Shown here: positions 41,690 through 55,924 of the stretch, piece after piece
Position numbering within the stretch: the first letter of the stretch is position 1
How the letters are laid out: every line of letters starts with the position of its first letter
Source of the DNA: Chiloscyllium plagiosum
Lineage: Eukaryota
Length of the DNA stretch: 64,000 nucleotides
Direction: 5' to 3'
Assembly (NCBI RefSeq): GCF_004010195.1
Contig: NC_057753.1
Location: forward strand, 8,279,309-8,343,308
Made by a program: the position numbers and the translations under genes
Notes under the pieces: generated by a model
Database searches by the model: none
What the model saw: the letters and a program-made list of their open reading frames with translations, nothing else
Told to the model about the DNA's origin: nothing

Positions 41690-42320
41690 ACATGGAAGGA
41701 AAATGTACCGCTCACAGTGGAGAGTGTTGTCTTTGTGAGCAAATGTTCAGAAAATCATCTGTTCCGTTGCAATCCAAGTGCAGAAAACGTGGAGAGACAC
41801 TGTGGAAATGTGGGGATTGGAAGCAGGCATCCAGTTGCATTTCTGCTCTGGAAATTCAAATGTGGTCACACTGCGAAATTTACCTGTTCTATATGTTTGA
41901 TGGGAATCATTCAGTTGTCCTTGCTGCTGCCACAAAAGCGGGTTCACAATGACACTTTCAAATGCCAAGATTTTGGGATTTGCGACAAACGTTCCAGCGA
42001 ATTGATGTCCCATCTCCGTTTTCACACTGAGAGGGACACTTTCAATGCTCAGGTTGTGAGAATGCTTTGAAAAGTTCTGGGGAACTGCTACATCATCAAA
42101 GTGTTCATACTGAGGAGAGACTGTTCAAGTACTGTCAACGTAGCATTGAGTTCAGCCGATCACAAGAGAGTTCACATTGGGGAGAGGCACTCACCTGCAC
42201 AGAGTGTGGGAAGGGCTTTACTCGGAAATCCAGCCTGCTGAAGCACCATCGGGTTCACACTGAGGACAGGCCTTTTAAATGCCCAGCCTGTAGGAAAGGC
42301 CATGTAAGTTCCACCGGGCA
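41690..42320 (+). pseudogene. C2H2 zinc-finger gene remnant (frameshifted)
   Basis: HSGE/HTEERLFK/HTEDRPFKC linkers; CTECGKGFTRKSSLLKHHRVH finger; several frameshifts and stops. Confidence 0.8.
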
Positions 42321-42399: not shown

Positions 42400-43575
42400 T
42401 TGATATTATAGTTGGACTAAGTTAAGCTTAAGATTGAAAATGGCAGGAGATTGCAGATCCATGTTATGCTTCACTTGCTCAATATGGGAACTCAGGGACG
42501 CTGCTGATGTCCCTGACTCCTTTACGTGCAGGAACTGTGTCCAGCTGCAGCTCTTGTTAGACTGCAGGACGGTTCTGGAGATGTGGATGGATTCACTTTA
42601 GAGCAGACGTGATGCTGAGGGGGTCGTGAATAGCAGGTTTAGTGAATTGGTCACACCGCAGATTAGGATTGCTGAGGAAGAAAGGTAATTGGTGACCAAA
42701 AGGCAGATAAAGCAGGAAGGAAGTGCGGGCATCCTCTGTGGTAGTCGCCCCCCCACCACACACACACACATCAGGTAAACCGTTTTGGATACTGCTGGGC
42801 AGATGGCTTAGAAGGGACAGGCAGCAGGAGGCAGAATCAGGGCACCGTGGCTGGCTCTGCAGTACAGAAGGGCGGAAAAGATAGTGGAAGGGCTATATAG
42901 CCATAGTGGATTAAATTATAACGGGAGTAAATAGGCATTTCTGTGGCCAAATATGAGACTCCCGAATGGCATGTTGACTCCCAGGTGCACGGGTCAGGGA
43001 AGTCTCGGATTGGCAGAATGTTCTGACTGGTGAGTATGAATAGTCAGTTGTCGTTGTACATATAGGCACCAATGACACAGGTTAAAAAATGAATGTGGTC
43101 CGACAAGCAGAATTTAGGGAGCTTGGAGTCAAATTAAAAAGTAGGATCTCAGTGGTAGGAATTTCAGAATTGCTACTAGTGTCATGTGCCAGTCAGTGTA
43201 GAAATGAAAGAATACACAGCTTGATTGCGTGGCTTGAGAGATGGGGCAGAAGGGAAGGATTCAGATGTTTGGGACATTGCGTCCAGTGCTGCAGGACGAC
43301 TGCAAATATGACAGTCCACACCTGGGCCAGAATGGTATTAATGTTCTTGAGGGTGCTTTTTGTAACGCTGTTGGGGAGGATTTAACTTAATGTGACGGGG
43401 GATGACAGGGTGATGGGAACTAACTGAGGAGGTTAGTGGGCAGTAAGGAGGCTGCTTGAAGGTAAATCCACATTTGATATGTGGGAGGCTTTTAAAGAGA
43501 GTCTGATTAAAGTGCAAGAGAGACACGATCGTCTGAAAATGAGGGATAGAAATGGCAAGATGAGGGAACCATGGA
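42400..43575 (+). mobile_element. CR1 LINE 5' part (ORF1; ORF2 EN region deleted), interrupted by the ERV
   Basis: ORF1 zinc finger (CFTCSIWE..FTCRNC) and esterase (HIGTND, GISELL) remnants; ends at the REPW motif. Confidence 0.85.
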
Positions 43576-45517
43576 TGTGGAGGAGAATTTAGCTCCCATC
43601 TGGAATTAGCAGCCATCTGGTCACATAAACTGGTCTTACAGGACAAAGCTAGACCTGCCGACATGCCCTCTGAGAGTAGTGTTGCCTTAGCTGTTAGCTA
43701 AAGATAACCTTGCGACTATTTATTGGGGCCAGGCTTAAATGTTACGTTGCCTGGAAAAACTTTGGGATGTTGTAAGGACCATCAGCCTCCCAAAGTCAAG
43801 GTGCGACAGCTACCAAGCACTTACACGGCTTTGTCCCCTACTGCTCCGCCACCTCCTCCCCTCTGCCCAATACCTCCCAATATCCTAAAGTGCCCCTCCC
43901 TACCTCAGAACTCTGAGAAGTCGCAGCCATCATCGCGACACTTACAGTGGTCTCCTTCCATTACCCGGTTATGAATGGAGGGGCTGCGCAGCTACTTCCT
44001 AACAATGATGCGGTTCTGTACGATCGTCTGGGGTCGGCATCGGGCTGTCATTACCGTCCGACTCCTCATGAGTCAACACCCGACACCAACCCTCCTACTC
44101 AAAGCACCAGTTCTCAATCTGCGCATCTTAATTGACCCTGTCTCATGATAGACAAGGTCCACTTTGACAAACCCTGACCTCATGCTGAGATCCGCGGCAC
44201 ATTCCTGGACGCCTTGATCCGCTGAAGTGCCCAGGTCCTTTTTGCTACTGGCTGCTACAGACTTGTAATATCGAAAATTGCTTGCCACAAGATGTAAATA
44301 ATTTGTTGCACTTGCCTTATGGTACCCGCTGGTCATTAAAAATTCAGTGGCTTTCCCCGCCACCCCCTGGGGCTCCACAGTGGCCAGGGAACGGTGAAGG
44401 AGACCGAAAAGCCAGCTGTATTGTTCGCTGCACGGCAGCAGGTGGATTTTCAGGAGGTCACGTGCCATCTCCAAAAAACTCATGCAACCCTACCTGACTT
44501 TCTCGCATGCTTTAAGGAAGTTTGAGAATCCTCTGCGGGTGCTGTCCTCTCAGACAATCATAGATTGGAAATTCAGCGTTTGTTAACTGCATGCAGTCTT
44601 GCTATGCACACATTTGTAAGTCCATCAAACCTTGACTGGCATTCCAAAACCTGGGAGTAAATGCCCACTTGGCTCGCTAGTATGCATCAGCAAAGCCTTT
44701 TCGAGTATACCAAAGAAAAAGAGACGTTCTCACGTGTGCCGTCAACACCTTTTCCCCGGTGTCCAACTGCGGAGAGGGCGCAACATCAACAGTGCTGGGA
44801 AGGACAGCACTTGCAGCGCAAGGACATTAATTAGGACCAGTGTCAGGCCTGTGGCACTTTGGCCATTGGGCACAAGATTGTCAGGTAACTTCCTCCCCAA
44901 CACCATCGTTTCCTCAGCCTGACCTTTCATTGCGATGGTGCACCCCGCCAGCTACCTTTTTGGTCAACAACCCTTTCCTACACGACCTGCAGTCACAGAG
45001 CTGCTGCATGAGGGAGGTCCTGCAGGTCACTTCAATGTGGCTCTCCTATTCCCCATGCAAAACCCCATGATGGATATAGAAATGGGTGATCGACTTTTTT
45101 CGGTTCTGGTAGACTCTGGAGCCACAGAGCCTTCTGCGCCTCCCTTAGCGGGCCTTCCCCTTACATCTGATACCGTTCACACTGTGGACATCTCTGAACT
45201 ACCCTTGGTTGAACCCCGCGCTGTCCTTCTTCCGATCAAGGTAGAGTCCCTTTGAGTCATTGACGTACTGTTGTCTCCCCTTCCTGCCCCGTGCCCCTAT
45301 GTTGTCGCCATCTTACCTTTGAAATCCCTCACTCCCAATTTCCCCTACTACAGACTGCCATGACTACACTGTCCCCGCCCTCTTCACCACTCTCCCCTTA
45401 CTCTTGGTCAGTTTGTCGCAATCCTGTGCGCGTGTTCCTTTATTCTGCCTATACAGAGCCCCTCCCTCTCCACTTGCAAACTTCCTGACATGGATCTTTA
45501 AAACCGGCTGAATTTTA

Positions 45518-45796
45518 TGCAGCGCCCACGCTACTGCTGCTTATTTTGACCGGCCTGATCCACCCTATTCCACTATTGCCATCCCACACATCAAGACACC
45601 CTTCCCCCCTATCGATGATGGGCTCTTACTTCGTCTGGAGGAGGAGGTAGCGGCAGAGTTCTTGCTCACTACCGACCAGGACTTACTATCTCGACATAAG
45701 CCGACCTCAGCCCAGCACATTTCTGTCCTGGTTAAACCCCCATGGAACGGAAAGGATTTGGGCCCACTTGTCCACTGTCTTAGAGGACTGCAATGA
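45518..45796 (+). pseudogene. 2H-phosphoesterase (CNPase-like) domain remnant in the ERV pol region
   Basis: Open frame CSAHATAAYFD...VAAEFLLTTDQ...SAQHISVLVK..KDLGPLV: two Hx[T/S] motifs 63 aa apart, located between protease and RT. Confidence 0.75.
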
Positions 45797-47440
45797 TACT
45801 TCAGGCCTTTCGATCCTCCGAGCCCCGACTCCCTGCGGTTGGCTGTTCTTGGAGAGACCGCATTCTGCCTGCCCAGCAGTCCTACCTCAGCTGAAGGCAT
45901 TTTCCTCTTGCATTCCTCACCACCACCCCCTCCTCTGATATCCTCTTGTTACTCCAGCATCTGCCACCCTCCTATGGGCCCAGCATTGTAATCATACTGG
46001 ATTGGTCCTCTTTTCCTCGCCGCACACGGTCACTAGCAAACACGGTGTGACCCTGCCCTCCATCAGACAATATTACTTGTCTCCTGCTGTTAGAGAGGGG
46101 ATTAAGTCGGTTTTTATTCCCTCCTCCAACAGGGCGTCCTCGTGCCCACTGTTAGCCCTTGTGACACTCCTATTCTCTCCACCCCCAAGTCTAGCAAATC
46201 AGGCCCTAGGCAGTTTGTGCAAGTATTGTCGCCAGTACTGTCAGACACTAATGCCATCCTTACTGACCTCTCTGCCACAGCCATCTGTTTTTCTCTTATC
46301 GACCTCTGCTCAGCCCTTTTCTCCATGAAATTGTGACCCGAAAGTCAATAATTTTTCGCCTTCACTTACGGCAGTCGCCAATATACATGGACATGGCTTC
46401 CCCAGGGTTTCACGGAGAGCTCCTCTGTGTGCATCACACTCTGCAACTCCTCTGCTTGCCAGGCCAGAGTGGCCTCATTGAATAGACGGATGACCTCTTG
46501 GTGCCTCAAGCTCTCCAACCGTATATATACAGGATACACCAGCCCTCCTCTGCTGTTTGGCTCACGATGGACATAAGGTTTCAGTTGAGAAGATGCAACT
46601 CTGCCAATTGACTGTGCAGTACTTGGCTATGAACTCTCCTACGGGTTTTGATCCAGATCGCGAGACTGTATTGAGGCCATCCTCCATCTTTCACACAAAG
46701 TGTGTACAATTGTAGTGAATATGTGCAATGCCCATGTGAGGGACGAATCGTTCAACATTACTCATGCTATCCAGTCGTCCAAACGCATTTAGATGATTTC
46801 AGGCAAGGTCCCAATGGGGGGGAGAGGTAGATGGGAATGCTATCAGAGGTTACTGGGGATCCTGTCTGCTGCACGGACTTGTCCTTATTGTTGTTATTAT
46901 CGTTGTGTGTTGCTTTGCCATTTGTTGCTTAAATACCAGCTGTAAAATTATCCAAAATAAGTTGGCTACGCCGTTCTCCAACCCCCTAACATCGTAGTTG
47001 GCCAGAATAACCCCTAAGGCGTACGCCTACCATGACGCAGAACCCAAGGCCTTGCCCTCGAACCCCCCCCCCCTCCCCACCGCCAACACGGAGCTCGAAG
47101 CTTCTTTTTATGATTCTGAAACCCCACCACCAGACAACTCACTGGGCTCCAGTAATGTTCCCCCATTCACGGAAACTCCAGACCTGTTTTCCTAATTTAC
47201 TCATTTGATCTTGTGATCAAAGACAATGGATTGTGCAGGAGAATTTGGTTCCTGGGAATTAGCAGCCATCTTGTAACATAAACTGGTCTTCCAGGACAAA
47301 GCTAGAACTGGTGATACGTCCGCTCAGAGAATTTCTGCCTCAGATGTTTTTCGAAATATAGCCTTGCAACTATTTGAAATCATTGTTTATCCCCCAAACC
47401 AAGACTAGTTCAGTTTCATAATGATATATGACTCATTTCA

Positions 47441-47744
47441 AGATTTTAGATTCCCTACAGTATGGAAACAGGCCCTTCGGTCCAACAAGTCCACACCAAC
47501 CCTTTGAAGGGTAACTAATGCACCTGACACTAAGGGCAATTTAGCATGACCAATTCACCTGACATGCACATCTTTGGTCTGTGGGAGGAATCGGAGCACC
47601 CAGAGGAAACCCACGCAGACACGGGGTGGGGGTGGAGGGTAGAATGTGCAAAATCCACACAGACAGACGCCCGAGGCGGAAATCAAACCCGTGTCCCTGG
47701 TGCTGTGAGGCAGCAGTGCTAATCACTGAGCCACCGTGCCGCCC
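47441..47744 (-). mobile_element. HE1-type V-SINE (tRNA-derived) inserted in the ERV 3' LTR
   Basis: Minus: GGGCGGCACGGTGGCTCAGTG (A box)..GGGTTTGATTTCC (B box); V-domain CCGTGTCTGCGTGGGTTTCCTC..CTCCCACAG; LINE-like 3' tail. Confidence 0.9.
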
Positions 47745-48082
47745 AAGAGACTCATTGTGTCGCTTATCTTCCTGATTCTTTTTCCTTTTGCTGCTTATCT
47801 TCCCGATTCTTGCAGGACCTGGCGCAAACACTGAGTATTTGCTACCCCTCCAGTCCTGCTTGATAAGGGAACATCTGTGACTGCAACCTGTGCTGACCAG
47901 TACTATCACTGACCCCATGGCTTTGTGACGAACGGTCAGCCCTTGCTTAAGATAGTACATAAACATTAATATTTTGTATTACTTCAGGCTGTTTCTCGCT
48001 GTGAGGCATGACATTTTCCCCATGATCATGCAATCAAAGTCTGTTAATGCTCAAGGTCTGACACCAGAGATTTGCTGCAGCA

Positions 48083-50375
48083 ATGGATGACAGGTGAAAT
48101 TGTGAGACGATCAAAAAGGAAAATAGAAGCATACACAAGGGTTCGGCGACTAAAGACAGCCAAAGCTTTGGAAGAATATCGAGAATGCATGCCAATCTGA
48201 AATGAGGAATGAAGACGGCTGAAAGGTATCATGAAATATCTTTAGCAAACAGCGTTAAGGAAAATCCCAAGGCCTTTTGTTCATTTGTAAGGAGCAAGAG
48301 GGTAAGTAGAGAAATAATTGGCCCACTCAAGGCCAAAGGCGGAAATTTATGCGTGGAGTCAGAGAAAATGGGTGAGATTCTTAATGAGTACTTTGCATCA
48401 GCATTCACCGAGGAGAAGGACATGACGGATATTAAGGTTAGGGATAGATGTTTGGTTACTCTAGGTCAAGTAGGCATAAGGTGGGAGGAAGTGTTGGGCA
48501 ATCTAAAAGGCATTAAGGTGGACAATTCCCCGGGTCTGCTAGGATTTATCCCAGGTTAATGAGACAATTGAGAGAGGAAATAACTGGGGCCTAAACAGTT
48601 ATCTTTTCAGCATCCTTGAACACATGTGAGGTCCCGGAGTACAGAAAAGTTCCTAATGTTGTCTCCTTGTTTAAGAAGTGCAGCAGGGATAATCCAGGTA
48701 ATTATGCTGTGGTGATCCTGACGTCTTTGGTAGGGAATCTACTGGAGAAGATATTGACCTATTCCCATTTGGAAGAAAATAGGCTTATCAGTTATAGGTA
48801 ACATGGTTTTGTGCAGGGAAGGACATGTCTTACCAACTTAATCAAATTCTTTGAAGAAATGATAAATTTGATTGATGTGGAAAGGGCTGTAGACGGCATA
48901 TATATGGACTTCAGTAAGTCGTTTGATCAGCTTTCCCATGGTAGGCTGATGGAAAAAGTGAAGTTACATGGAGTGCAGAGTGTATTAGCTAAATGGATAA
49001 AGAACCAGCTGGGTAACAGGAGACGGACAGTAGCAGTGGAAGGGAGTCTTTCAAAATGGAGAACTGTGACCAATGGTATTCCACAGGGATCTGTCCTGGC
49101 ACCACTATTATTTGTGATATAGATAAACAAATTGGAAGAAGGTACTGCTGGTCTGATTAGCAAGTTTGCAGATGACACTGGTGGAGTGGCAGATGGTGAA
49201 TGGTGATGGTGGTTGGTGGACTGCCAGAGAATAGAGCAGAATATAGATGGATTGGAGAATTGGTTGCAGAATTAGCAGACGGATTTCTATCCAGGCAAAT
49301 GCGAGATGATGCATTTTGGAAAATCCAATTCACGAGCGAACTGTACAATAAATGGAAAAGCCCTGGGGAAAATTGATGGACCGAGAGATCTGGATATTCA
49401 GGTCCATTCTACCCTGAAGGTGGGAATACAGGCCAGTAGAGTGGTCCAGAAGGCATACGGCATGCTTTCCTTCATCGGACGGGGTACTGAGTATGAGAAT
49501 TGGCAAGTCATGTTACAGTTGTATAACACCACGTTTGGAATACTGCGGACAGTTCTGGTCGCCATATTAACAAAAGGGTGTGGATGCTTTGGAGGGGGTA
49601 GAGAAAAGGTTCACCAGGATGTTGCCTGATATGAAGGGCGCTAGAAATGACGACAGGCTGAGTATATTAGGATGGTTTTCATTAGAAAGACGGATGTTGA
49701 GGGGGGATCTCATTGAGGTTAACAAAATCATGAGAGGTCTTTACAAGGTGGATAGCAAAAAGCTTTTTTCCAGACTAGGGAACTCAATTACCAGGAGTCA
49801 CCAAAATTAACAACACACTGTAATGCCTGACGAACATGAATAATGATAACTTCTCTCAAGGAGGTTGTAATAACGTCGAGGCAGCAGGACGTAGGTCTCA
49901 TAGAGAAGATGAACTCTGACAGGACATGACGAAAACATGAGAGAACCTGGACCAGGTCTCATGACGAAAACATGAGAGAACCTGGACCAGGTCTCAGAGA
50001 AAGAGCATTTTAGAATTCTTTTGTACAATGGGCTAGTGGTGGGAGAGAAACAAGTCGAGGCAGCTGATCAGATTGTCTCAATCTTAGTGACAATTCAATG
50101 AGATCAAGGTGAGCCGGAAATGTTTAAGGGAGATATGCGTGGCAAGGCTTTTACACAGAAGTGTTGTGTGCCTGGAACGGGTTGCCAGAGGAGGGGATAG
50201 AGGCCAAGAGGATAGTGTCATTTACGATGTATCTGGGCAGATACATGAATGGGCACAAAACAGAGGAATACAGATCCTTAGAAAATAGGTGACAGGTTTA
50301 GACAGACAATCTGGATTGGCGCAGATTTGGAGGGTCGAAGGACCTGTTCCTGTGCTGTAATGTTATGTGTTCTTT
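48083..50375 (+). mobile_element. Continuation of the host CR1 (ORF2 RT + 3' UTR)
   Basis: Resumes (W)MTGEIVR after the TSD; CLTNLIKFFEE, GIPQGSVL, SKFADDT; interrupted at 49799-50100. Confidence 0.88.
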
Positions 50376-50826
50376 GTTTTTGGTCTGGAATGGAACTATA
50401 TTCATCAGGATCAATTTCTGCTGATGTTTTGCTCAGTCACAGGTACTAATATTGGGAATCGTCAAATGAATCAGCTTTGGGTCCAACACACTGTCTGCCT
50501 GAATATTTTAACATATTTACACTGCACTTTGAAGAGGTTTTCCTCCCTCCTGTCTTTTCATTGAATTGTCACTAAGATTGAGACAATCTGATCAGTTGCC
50601 TCGACTTGTTTCTCTCCCACCACTAGCCCATTGTAAATGTGCATTCTAAATTACTCTTTCTCAGAGACATGGTCCAGGTTCTCTCATGTTTATCGTCATG
50701 TCCTGTCAGAGTTCATCTTCTCTATGAGACCTACGTCCTGCTGCCTCGACCTTATTACAACCTCCTTGAGAGAAATTATCATTATTCATGTTCGTCAGGC
50801 ATTACAGTGTATTGTTGATTTTGGTG
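49799..50826. repeat. Inverted repeat, arms 49799-50101 and 50558-50826; left arm carries a 35-bp tandem duplication
   Basis: Direct reverse-complement match (ORFs 49807-50028 - and 50637-50906 + share FSETWSRFSHV); CATGACGAAAACATGAGAGAACCTGGACCAGGTCT x2 at 49925 and 49960. Confidence 0.92.
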
Positions 50827-53060
50827 CCTGTTTCACTACTTTGCTCAGCATGAAATTGTCACTCGTGATTCTGTTAGTTTGTAAAGTACGGAGGTTGTGG
50901 TCATGAAAGAGTGGGTTGAAGAATCTCAGAGGTCGACAGCAAAGATAAAGGCCATTAGGCCCATGATGTCTGCACCAGTCAAAGGTGACCACCTCACAAT
51001 TTCAATCGCATTTAACAGTACTTAGCCTATAGCTTTGTATGTGTCTTAATATTGCAAGTGTGCAATTAAATACTTTGTTCATGTCAAATTAGTTCCTGTC
51101 TCTACTATCCTCACAAGCAGCAAGGATCAAACCGAGGAGTTTTGGAGGACAAAAAATTTCCCCTAAAACTTGTGTATGTACTGCTCTACTGACAGCAATG
51201 AATGATTTAGTAAGATCTACAAAAGTAAGCTAAGGAGGTAAATCCTGGGCCCTCCCTTCTCTTTGGTCTCGATTGGCTCAATAGCCTGCTTCCACACTGC
51301 CAGGATTCTATGATTCTATGATCAAATATGATACGTGTAAATAGACGAAAGTCAATTGGTAACAATATTTAAAAAACAACATGTACATCCAATCGGTAAG
51401 AGACAAATGCTCGACCAACCATAAACAAGTATATAAAACATAGTTCAAATCTAAACAAATATGATTTTGAGCTTTACAGACTCCCAGTATAGTTGATAAT
51501 CGGCCTATTTTTCGACATCTGCAATTGCATTAAAGCACTTTTTCAGTGGCCTGCAACTTCTTTGTCCTATGATGTTTACCTTCTTTGAATTTTGCCTTCC
51601 ATATTTCCGTGTATTGCCAGCAACCAAAAACTTCCATGCATATTATTTCTAATACTCTGATTATGTGAGTTCCATGCTTGATCATCAAATGGTGTGAAAT
51701 TCAAAGTTTTGGCTGGTGTCCTCAATGCCTCCTTTTGAAGTCACCCAGCGAAGAGTCAGATGATATCCAATGTGTTTCATCACATGCTCGTACTGGAACA
51801 CAATGTGAGTTTTCTTCGAGTTCTCTGTACTCTGATTTCCATTCTGACGTTGCCTCACGAGAGACTCACCATGCCACATCGCTTATATTTCTAATTTCAC
51901 CCCAAACCCCCACTTGTAGTATACTGTAAAAGTAAAAGTAGTTTTACGATCACTTATGAAAGTGCACCAGTGATTTCACTTATATTACCCAAGCTTGAAA
52001 CAAAAACATTTCTGAGGCAATAAGTGGCAAAGTGGGACACACTTAGGATCAATTTCATGGGGTGACGTATGTTCGTGAGTTCATTTGTTGGGATGCTTCC
52101 ATTTAAGGCAAAGGCTAGAACAAGGTTACACTATTTAAATCTCAGGCGTCTTCCATTTAAGATGGATATTAAAATAAACAAACAAAAAGAAGGCTCTGCA
52201 GTTACAATGCTGTTTTTTTCACACAAACTGCAGTAGATACTTGGTCAACAAATAGTTTATGTCAGAGTTGAGATGCACCGATTTTTTTGGGATCAGTGAC
52301 AAATTAAAAAAATATATGGCAGGGGAGGGGGTGATGGATGTTGGAGTTTAGAAACTGGAGTTAAGGCCCCATCATATCAGCAATGCTATGGCCAAATGAC
52401 AGAATAACCTCTCCCGTTCGAAATGCTGAATATCAGTCTTCTGCTTTTGTTCAGTTGTATGTTGCTGGGGGAAAAAAATCGAATGGTATATTCGTTTCAA
52501 ATAAGTTTCTACCACCTCAACTCCGCGAGTTTATTCATACAACTGAAAATCTGATAAGGTTTATGAGTTGTTTTTACAACCTTTTTTTGCAAAATTCTTT
52601 CTGGCCAACCATGCTAAGTTTATACATACACAAATAAATATGAAGAATTGCAGTATTTTAAAGACATTTGAAAAGGTAGGTAACAATGAAAGGCTTACAG
52701 TCATTTGGACCAAATACAAGGAAATGGAATAGTTCAATTTTGGCAGCCTGCGAGGCATGGACTGAGAGTCGGTTTATGTGCTGCATAACCCTGTGAGTTT
52801 GTGAGTCTATAATAGGCATTGAAAAGCACAACGGTTTAGCAGTACAGCTCCTTAGTTAGATTGAATGCCTGTGGACAGTAATTTGGCTCATAATCAGAAC
52901 TAGGACTGGCAGAAATTCAATAAACTGTCACATACAATGACTTGGAATTGTATATTTTTCGCCAAACAATCAAATATTGGCGAATAGATTCCATGCATGA
53001 TTTGGTGTAGAACGTTGTGCTAAAATAATGAACACCTTTCACTTAACGAAAAGTGGAAGC

Positions 53061-54524: not shown

Positions 54525-54738
54525 GAGAAAGTGAGGTCTGCAGATGCTGGAGATCAGAGCTGGAAATGTGTTGCTGGAAAAGCGCAGCAGGTCAGGCAGC
54601 ACCCAGGGAACAGGAGAATCGACGTTTCGGACATAAGCCCTTCTTCCTGAAGAAGGGCTTATGCCCGAAACGTCGATTCTCCTGTTCCCTAGATGCTGCC
54701 TGACCTGCTGCGCTTTTCCAGCAACACATTTTCAGCTC
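54525..54738. mobile_element. Penelope-derived fold-back mini-element with 16-bp TSD
   Basis: ~90-bp arms (54556-54645 and 54650-54739) are near-perfect reverse complements; TSD TACAGTTGTATAATAG at 54509-54524 and 54739-54754. Confidence 0.88.
54644..54679 (+). ncRNA. Minimal hammerhead ribozyme core at the fold-back apex
   Basis: UC-CUGAAGA-A-GGGC UUAU GCCC-GAAA-CG-UC-GA. Confidence 0.65.
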
Positions 54739-55924
54739 TACAGTTGTATAATAGTTTGGTTCAGCCACATTTGGAATACTGAGTACAGTTCTGGTCGCCA
54801 TGTTACCAAAAGGATGTGAATGCATTGGAGAGGGTGCAGAGTAGTTTCACTCGGATTTTGCCTGACATGGAGGGCGCTAGTTATGAAGAGAGGCTGAGGA
54901 GATTAGGATTACGTTCATTAGAAAGATGGAGGGTGACGAGGGTCCTGCTTGAGGTCTACGAAATCATGAGAGGCATAGAGAGGGTGGATAGCAAGAAGCT
55001 TTTTCCCAGAGTGGCGGACTCAGTACTAGGGTTCCCGAGTTCATAGAACATAGAACATAAAACATTACAGCGCAGCATCGGCCCTTCGGCCCTTGATGTT
55101 GCACCGACCTGTCTTACCAATCTGAAGCCCACCTAACCTGCACTATTCCATGTACTTTCAAAGTGAAAGGGGAAAGGTCTAAGGGAGAAATGCCCGGAAA
55201 GTTCTTCACGCAAAGGGCACTGGGTATTGTAACACATTGCCAGCAGAGGTGGTAGGGGAGGGCACAATAGCGTCATTTAAGATATATCTAGACAGATAAT
55301 GAATAGGTAGGGAGCAACGGGGTACAGACCATAAGGAACTAGGTGACAGGTTTAGAGAGAAAATCAGGGTCAGCACAGGCTTAGACTGTCGAACGGCCTG
55401 TTCCTGTGCCGTAATTTTCTTTGTTCGTTGTTCTCTGTATGTCCCTGTGCTTCTTAACTTCAGGCTGATGATATAACTCTGAACAAATAAATTACACAGG
55501 AGATGTCAGAGTTGTAACTCGTGATGTGAGAACATCACACATAGTGTCAAGAGGCTACAGACAACCATGTATGCTTTGTGAATGAATCCGGAGTATATGA
55601 GTACAAACCACATCCTCAGTTGATGCGCGAAGGGAAAAAGCGCTCAACACATGATGGAAGTTTGTGTATATCAAAAAAAAATCCCATGCTGAATGGCTGT
55701 TCAGTGCTAATGGTAAAACTATGCAGCCTCAAGGCAGATTGAAACTCACTGGTTCTGACAATAGATTAACGATGTGAATGACTTGCAACACCATTTTGAG
55801 TGTTAATACCTTTTAGTATATTTATACTTTTCATATGGTTTTGTAAATGCATGGAATTTTGAACGGAGGTCAGACATAAGATAATCAAATTAAATCATGC
55901 AGAATTCATTCTGCATTTTTCTTT

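Follow-up and report, generated by a model that had tools for sequence, protein, structure and literature searches.

The window analysed here, a 64,000-nucleotide stretch of the Chiloscyllium plagiosum genome (contig NC_057753.1, positions 8,279,309 to 8,343,308), contains an LTR-flanked and internally deleted retroviral element of 3.8 kb, in which the order LTR-gag-pro-pol is present. Its features, in window coordinates, are the following.

43576–43722, forward strand: 5' LTR-like direct repeat of about 147 nt, ends approximate (direct-repeat detection)
44145–44881, forward strand: broken gag remnant (tblastn to P0141 at 44145–44290, E 2e-6)
45067–45255, forward strand: aspartic protease remnant with DSG at 45112 (tblastn to P0011, E 5e-5; Pfam RVP, E 0.15)
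45512–45904, forward strand: CNPase-like 2H domain remnant (profile score 26.7 bits; P0141 aligned over 45500–45904)
45527–45544, forward strand: first H-x-T motif of the domain, with an aromatic residue at +5 (translation and alignment)
45716–45763, forward strand: second H-x-S motif and a Gly 15 residues on that opens a predicted helix (translation, alignments and model)
45972–46684, forward strand: reverse transcriptase (RT) remnant in three frames with stops (tblastn and PDB-sequence match)
46797–47195, forward strand: probable env C-terminal remnant with a hydrophobic segment, a Cys cluster and a tail (position and composition)
47232–47376, forward strand: 3' LTR-like direct repeat, ends approximate (direct-repeat detection)

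The two LTR-like repeats are identical at 113 of 144 aligned columns (78%, K2P 0.257). Inspected by eye, the LTR ends are heavily eroded where a primer-binding site, a polypurine tract and a target-site duplication were sought. Dating by the LTRs was rejected, given the 144 columns, the uncertain ends and the want of a reliable rate. The gag remnant ends in a C-x2-C...H...C arrangement at 44841–44881, split over two frames, which we take to be a gag knuckle. The RT breaks off in the thumb region near 46684, with no RNase H or integrase after it within the element. The segment at 46797–47195 is probably the end of env, to judge by position and composition; Pfam matched it to no env family and returned Orthoreo_P10 only (E 0.01). 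An earlier note on this DNA had placed the putative 2H domain downstream of a protease motif and upstream of RT, and this arrangement is borne out by the DSG motif, whose Asp codon lies at 45112 in another frame than the domain, and by a downstream match to the RT of MLV.

High-copy repeats with very high read depth flank the element at 43000–43587, 47446–47750 and 48200–49800; they are presumably CR1-type LINE pieces and a SINE. A C2H2 zinc-finger-like remnant occupies several frames at 41801–42315 (tblastn to P0018, E 1e-14), and long inverted repeats of 140 and 134 nt at 93–96%, together with a 91-nt near-palindrome, occur at 49796–50829 and 54556–54739.

The core of the domain is read from 94 codons, stop to stop, at 45512–45796 of the forward strand. 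Re-translation confirmed the stop-free stretch of the earlier note, quoted as 45518–45796 and lying inside these limits, and its two histidine codons: the first motif, H-A-T-A, starts at 45527 and the second, H-I-S-V, at 45716, 63 codons apart. Stops stand directly before the domain remnant (45509–45511) and inside the domain (45794–45796). The stretch contains no ATG, and the frame that holds it has 11 stops in 447 codons, so that stop-free length carries little weight and by itself means little. The motif pair alone is likewise weak evidence. Two H-x-[ST]-hydrophobic motifs 55–110 residues apart are not rare in the window, where they are found in 3 of the 159 stop-free stretches of at least 80 amino acids; shuffling the residues of the segment 20,000 times produced the same pattern 74 times. 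Searches with the segment alone returned no match in Pfam, in PDB sequences or in a word search of longer proteins, and the Atlas search gave unnamed clusters only (recognition 2287) and no family match. With the read-through frame, neither a word search of long proteins nor a search of viral contigs gave a match. The frequency of such pairs and the blank single-sequence searches are what could be said for the view that the pair occurs by chance in a decayed spacer.

Homology, rather than the motif pair, settles the identity of the domain. With the domain-plus-RT frame of the window as query, phmmer matched 411 proteins at E ≤0.001, the best 150 of which were examined; the top match of the 411 is the sawshark protein P0006. 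The best match to the domain itself is the bamboo shark protein P0141, with 31% identity over 45500–45904 (tblastn, E 1e-10) in a nearly gap-free alignment. Since this alignment reaches 45904, the homology extends beyond the stop at 45794–45796. The remnant runs from the first motif into the C-terminal part of the domain, and the N-terminal part is not recognisable in the frame. A profile was built from the protease-RT spacers of 13 natural fish and shark Pol proteins with the window copy left out; its seeds came from the search with the window's own frame, which entails a mild selection, and nearly all of them were found through RT. The window stretch scores 26.7 bits against this profile, compared with at most 4.7 bits for 1,268 other window stretches and 6.1 bits for 2,000 shuffles. 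Both histidines of the window align with the conserved histidines of the family. The profile score and the register of the histidines refute a chance origin of the motif pair, which the nearly gap-free alignment with P0141 also opposes and which we regard as hardly tenable.

The profile finds the domain in 29 of the best 150 of the 411 matches, and a further profile search added 11 proteins, including additional skate, shark and hake entries. Relatives with the domain between protease and RT come from perch, wrasse, cardinalfish, catfish, hake, skates and sharks. The earlier note had proposed to examine whether the histidines are conserved, and among related ERV proteins they largely are: the first is retained in 21 of 23 covering relatives, the second in 23 of 26, and both in 19 of the 28 aligned. 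The spacing between them is mostly 59–64 residues, against 63 in the window. The position five residues after the first histidine is aromatic in 16 of 24 covering relatives and Val in 7, with Tyr in both the window and P0006. A Gly 15 residues after the second histidine is invariant in an 18-row alignment, which comprises 17 of the 19 relatives with both histidines (two short ones were omitted), so that the invariance of the histidines themselves there is due to selection of the rows. Conservation of the two catalytic motifs and of the helix Gly thus extends over sequences that share only 16–24% identity.

Sequence and fold comparisons both point to the CNPase/RICH group of 2H enzymes. Searched against PDB sequences, the family profile matches goldfish RICH first (E 2e-4) and then CNPases, and 22 of 23 rows belong to CNPase or RICH. 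The model of the P0006 domain, with a modest pLDDT of 61, matches mouse CNPase in VIA at Z 9.5 (rmsd 4.3, 153 residues aligned), followed by MHV NS2 (Z 5.4), AKAP18 (4.2–4.4), rotavirus VP3 (4.3), phage Acb1 (4.2), penguinpox PDE (3.9) and plant CPDase (3.6). Ranks 1–21 of the 26 VIA rows are 2H-type entries, one of them a mitoribosome chain carrying an AKAP7 domain name. Foldseek agrees in rank order, its rows being CNPase or RICH except for one fungal RNA kinase (best E 1.5e-3). The read-through model of the window copy itself, built without the N-terminal part that is absent from its frame, has a pLDDT of 53; CNPase ranks first for it, yet at Z 4.2 and rmsd 5.2 this is tied with unrelated folds and not significant. 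The proposal of a 2H domain between protease and RT stands on the profile score, the register of both histidines and the fold of an intact relative, the last of these being the fold search that the earlier note had called for. Pfam recognised 2_5_RNA_ligase2 in 3 of the 18 alignment members (best E 2.4e-4) and the CNPase family in none of them.

The spacing from the second histidine to the invariant Gly equals that of His309 and Gly324 in mouse CNPase. According to the available text of PMC3290555, Gly324 and Phe235 matter for binding in CNPase; Gly324 opens the CNPase-specific helix alpha7, and its mutation impairs both binding and catalysis. In the P0006 model a helix is predicted at residues 122–139 with the Gly at its start, and by spacing and predicted secondary structure this fits a CNPase-type alpha7-like helix following the second motif. 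The counterpart of CNPase Arg307, two residues before the second histidine, holds no Arg in the 18-row alignment. The R307Q mutant of CNPase raises KM only and keeps kcat, as given in the accessible part of PMC4643303, and the missing Arg therefore lowers the case that the domain is a CNPase but not the case that it works like one.

These comparisons bear on the function that the domain might have served. The earlier note had left two possibilities side by side, RNA-end processing and the degradation of nucleotide messengers such as 2-5A or cGAMP; since sequence and fold point to CNPase and RICH rather than to AKAP7, NS2 and VP3, the former, as processing of 2',3'-cyclic phosphate ends, is preferred to the latter. 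With respect to the 2',5'-PE subfamily, defined in the available part of PMC8406329, AKAP7, NS2 and VP3 are not the nearest structures and an alpha7-like helix is predicted. In 2-5A-degrading enzymes the substrate binds on the side that helix alpha7 obstructs in CNPase (available text of PMC5283653), a point against an NS2-like role, the one that the earlier note had named first. On the predicted structure, the domain is better called CNPase-like than an RNase L antagonist. We consider it unlikely that, despite its CNPase ancestry, it was an innate-immune antagonist degrading 2-5A in the manner of NS2, NS4b and VP3, or cGAMP in the manner of Acb1 and the avipox PDE. Such a role would agree with the common 2H fold, with the repeated capture of 2H enzymes by viruses against innate immunity described in the portions seen of PMC10835031 and PMC11410667, and with the patchy occurrence of the domain over the RT tree, which would suit an accessory factor. 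Against it stand the score of CNPase, 4 Z units above all those enzymes, and the predicted helix, which should block the 2-5A side. The text available from the same two articles on viral PDEs does not mention retroviruses (term search, 0 matches to 'retro' or 'retrovir'). What speaks against the CNPase-type reading itself is that viral 2H enzymes have switched substrate repeatedly (PMC11410667, in part), and the fold therefore does not fix the substrate.

The RT remnant places the element among epsilon-like class I retroviruses. Against solved structures it matches MLV at E 5.6e-10, foamy virus at 4e-8 and Ty3 at 0.02–0.1, and it is nearer to MLV-type and fish and shark ERV RTs than to Ty3/Gypsy. 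A quick RT tree of 101 rows comprised the window and those 100 of 154 RT-bearing proteins that cover the RT stretch. The RT phylogeny that the earlier note had suggested joins the window to the shark ERV protein P0006 with SH-aLRT 98, in a group that includes mackerel as well as sawshark Pols; the branch of the window is long, at 1.75, and WEHV1 lies in another branch. Among all 154 RT-bearing proteins, 30 carry the domain upstream of RT, 22 have a protease and no domain, and 102 are uncallable. The distance from protease to RT is 262–338 amino acids in proteins with the domain (n=9) and 108–159 in 20 of the 22 without it; the window, at about 308 codons measured by hand, falls with the domain carriers. 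The sister group of the window lineage (14 rows, SH-aLRT 99) includes six members with a protease and no domain and none with the domain, and this distribution suggests that the domain was lost there. Two proteins, P0010 and P0041, have long spacers (244 and 268 amino acids) without a profile match. The gene models P0018 (zinc finger protein 271-like) and P0019 (esterase OVCA2) contain retroviral RT and are probably chimeric annotations.

The locus is a fixed, old, non-coding relic, a dead copy of its virus. That it is defective, as had been claimed, is evident from the stops and frameshifts, from LTRs that are 78% alike and from the occurrence of this deleted element in two further species. 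A conspecific contig spans 45090–45895 with three differences and no gaps, and the frame breaks within this part are therefore not assembly errors. The two other species carry what seems to be this very insertion with its deletion, 6–7% different. In one of them, a single contig of 4,014 nt spans the whole deleted element (window 43472–47469) plus roughly 100 nt of flanking sequence at either end, and differs from the window by 293 differences and 52 gap letters; the second covers the element in pieces at about 6% difference. Both the insertion and the internal deletion seem, by these alignments, to be older than the three species. Each run has a single contig over the domain at 85% likeness; this is not a copy count, and it holds no hint of a large, young family. 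No reads fell on the element in the roughly 6% sampled from a poly(A) single-cell run, which does not amount to a test of expression. Co-option of the domain as a host gene was rejected, as there is no ATG, a stop lies inside the domain and the N-terminal part is out of frame; it is also opposed by the alignment to the species that covers the element in pieces, where the domain piece (48 differences in 929, with 44 gap letters) is roughly as divergent as the neighbouring pieces (54 in 909, 62 in 1017 and 45 in 742).

The presence of such domains in fish retroviruses, asserted in the earlier note, is on record. Fish retroviruses and WDSV are listed as bearing 2H domains in the available text of PMC9503650, which cites Mazumder 2002; according to that of PMC4977317, which cites Basta 2009, a CNPase or macro domain is occasionally encoded by epsilon-like ERVs of ray-finned fish. 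Fish retroviruses are thus already described as carrying the domain, and the present copy is so decayed that it contributes little. Term searches of the accessible text of PMC4422223, PMC8672886, PMC12690878, PMC3185748, PMC9967133 and PMC7599744 found no mention of it. In a literature search covering mainly freely available papers, we found neither an account of the domain in ERVs of cartilaginous fish nor a study testing the function of any retroviral 2H domain.

The locus is best explained as holding a decayed, once captured CNPase-type 2H domain from the Pol of an epsilon-like (class I) fish or shark retrovirus, and the predicted activity, that of a 2',3'-cyclic-phosphate 3'-phosphodiesterase, makes up a reading we consider probable as a whole. 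In the ancestral virus the domain would have been made as part of Gag-Pol and hence packaged into virions. The most likely activity of the intact domain was the hydrolysis of 2',3'-cyclic phosphates, whether in free 2',3'-cNMPs or at the ends of RNA, leaving a 2'-phosphate and a 3'-OH. By analogy with CNPase, catalysis would depend on the two His-x-Thr/Ser motifs, with the base stacked by the aromatic residue five positions after the first histidine, and the alpha7-like helix would position water and close the side used by 2-5A-degrading enzymes. A likely use might be the repair of ends left on viral RNA or on primer tRNA by metal-independent host RNases, and the clean-up of such ends may also blunt the sensing of these RNA fragments.

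A different cyclic phosphate can be envisaged as substrate. The domain might have hydrolysed ADP-ribose 1'',2''-cyclic phosphate, partnered with retroviral macro domains in ADP-ribose metabolism; CNPase and macro domains are both occasional in fish ERVs (PMC4977317, as available), and the accessible part of PMC9503650 ties 2H and macro domains together in viral systems. We regard this as very unlikely: the available text of PMC4643303 contrasts CNPase with the plant CPDases, which do accept this substrate, the fold match to plant CPDase reaches only Z 3.6, and Pfam found no macro domain at the locus in the 16 stretches scanned. Retention of the catalytic motifs and the helix Gly at 16–24% identity opposes a non-catalytic role, whether as a structural spacer in Pol or as a scaffold or decoy that counters the restriction of Gag assembly by host CNP. 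Such a role is highly improbable, although particle formation is inhibited by host CNP, which binds HIV-1 MA (PMC7471995 in its available text, citing Wilson 2012), and a similar fold in WDSV and WEHV1 Env entries implies that the position of the domain is flexible.

The phosphodiesterase reading can be extended into a broader and tentative one, to which we give a minor chance. A CNPase/RICH catalytic domain may have been captured early, before or near the split of sharks and bony fish, and kept with its helix, some lineages having it in Pol and the walleye viruses in the Env cytoplasmic loop, as an active enzyme against an arm of innate immunity based on 2',3'-cyclic phosphates. If true, this would make the domain the first nucleotide-degrading immune antagonist from a retrovirus and would offer a handle on the physiological substrate of CNPase, which the available text of PMC3290555 calls unknown. 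The locus itself matters little, being a dead copy of a described arrangement, and the family is of more interest: the analysis predicts that 2',3'-cNMP is cleaved and 2-5A is not, and intact natural domains exist in skate, sawshark and teleost proteins.

Among known systems, the cGAMP-degrading phage Acb1 and avipox PDE share the 2H fold at Z 4.2 and 3.9 and have no sequence-profile match. AKAP7/AKAP18, MHV NS2, MERS NS4b and rotavirus VP3 share the fold and the catalytic motifs, with Z 4.2–5.4 for AKAP18, NS2 and VP3 against 9.5 for CNPase; 2',5'-phosphoesterases lack helix alpha7 (PMC5283653, in part). Fish retroviruses and epsilon-like ERVs have the same kind of domain in the same virus group. 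The window copy differs from these published domains in being dead and internally deleted and in having its nearest named relatives in sharks, whereas the mention in the available text of PMC4977317 is limited to ray-finned fish. The best viral fold matches of the domain model are Q2VF30_1, WDSV Env (A4GTG3) and WEHV1 Env (Q9WHI8). The first is presumably the polyprotein of salmon swim bladder sarcoma virus. The fold search thus matches Env entries of WDSV and WEHV1, and WEHV1 Pol (P0023) is without the domain; the WDSV Env cytoplasmic loop of about 170 amino acids (available text of PMC3185748) is about the size of the domain.

The best match in both sequence profile and fold is provided by vertebrate CNPase and fish RICH (2xmi, 1woj, 2ilx, 2i3e). 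At 12–20% identity the viral domain differs from them in being enclosed in a polyprotein, in lacking a counterpart of Arg307 and the N-terminal domain of CNPase, and in a shorter loop before the second motif, the histidines being about 63 residues apart against 79 in CNPase (His230 and His309). Common to both are the two H-x-T/S motifs, the aromatic residue five positions after the first histidine (Phe235 in CNPase) and the helix-opening Gly fifteen positions after the second.
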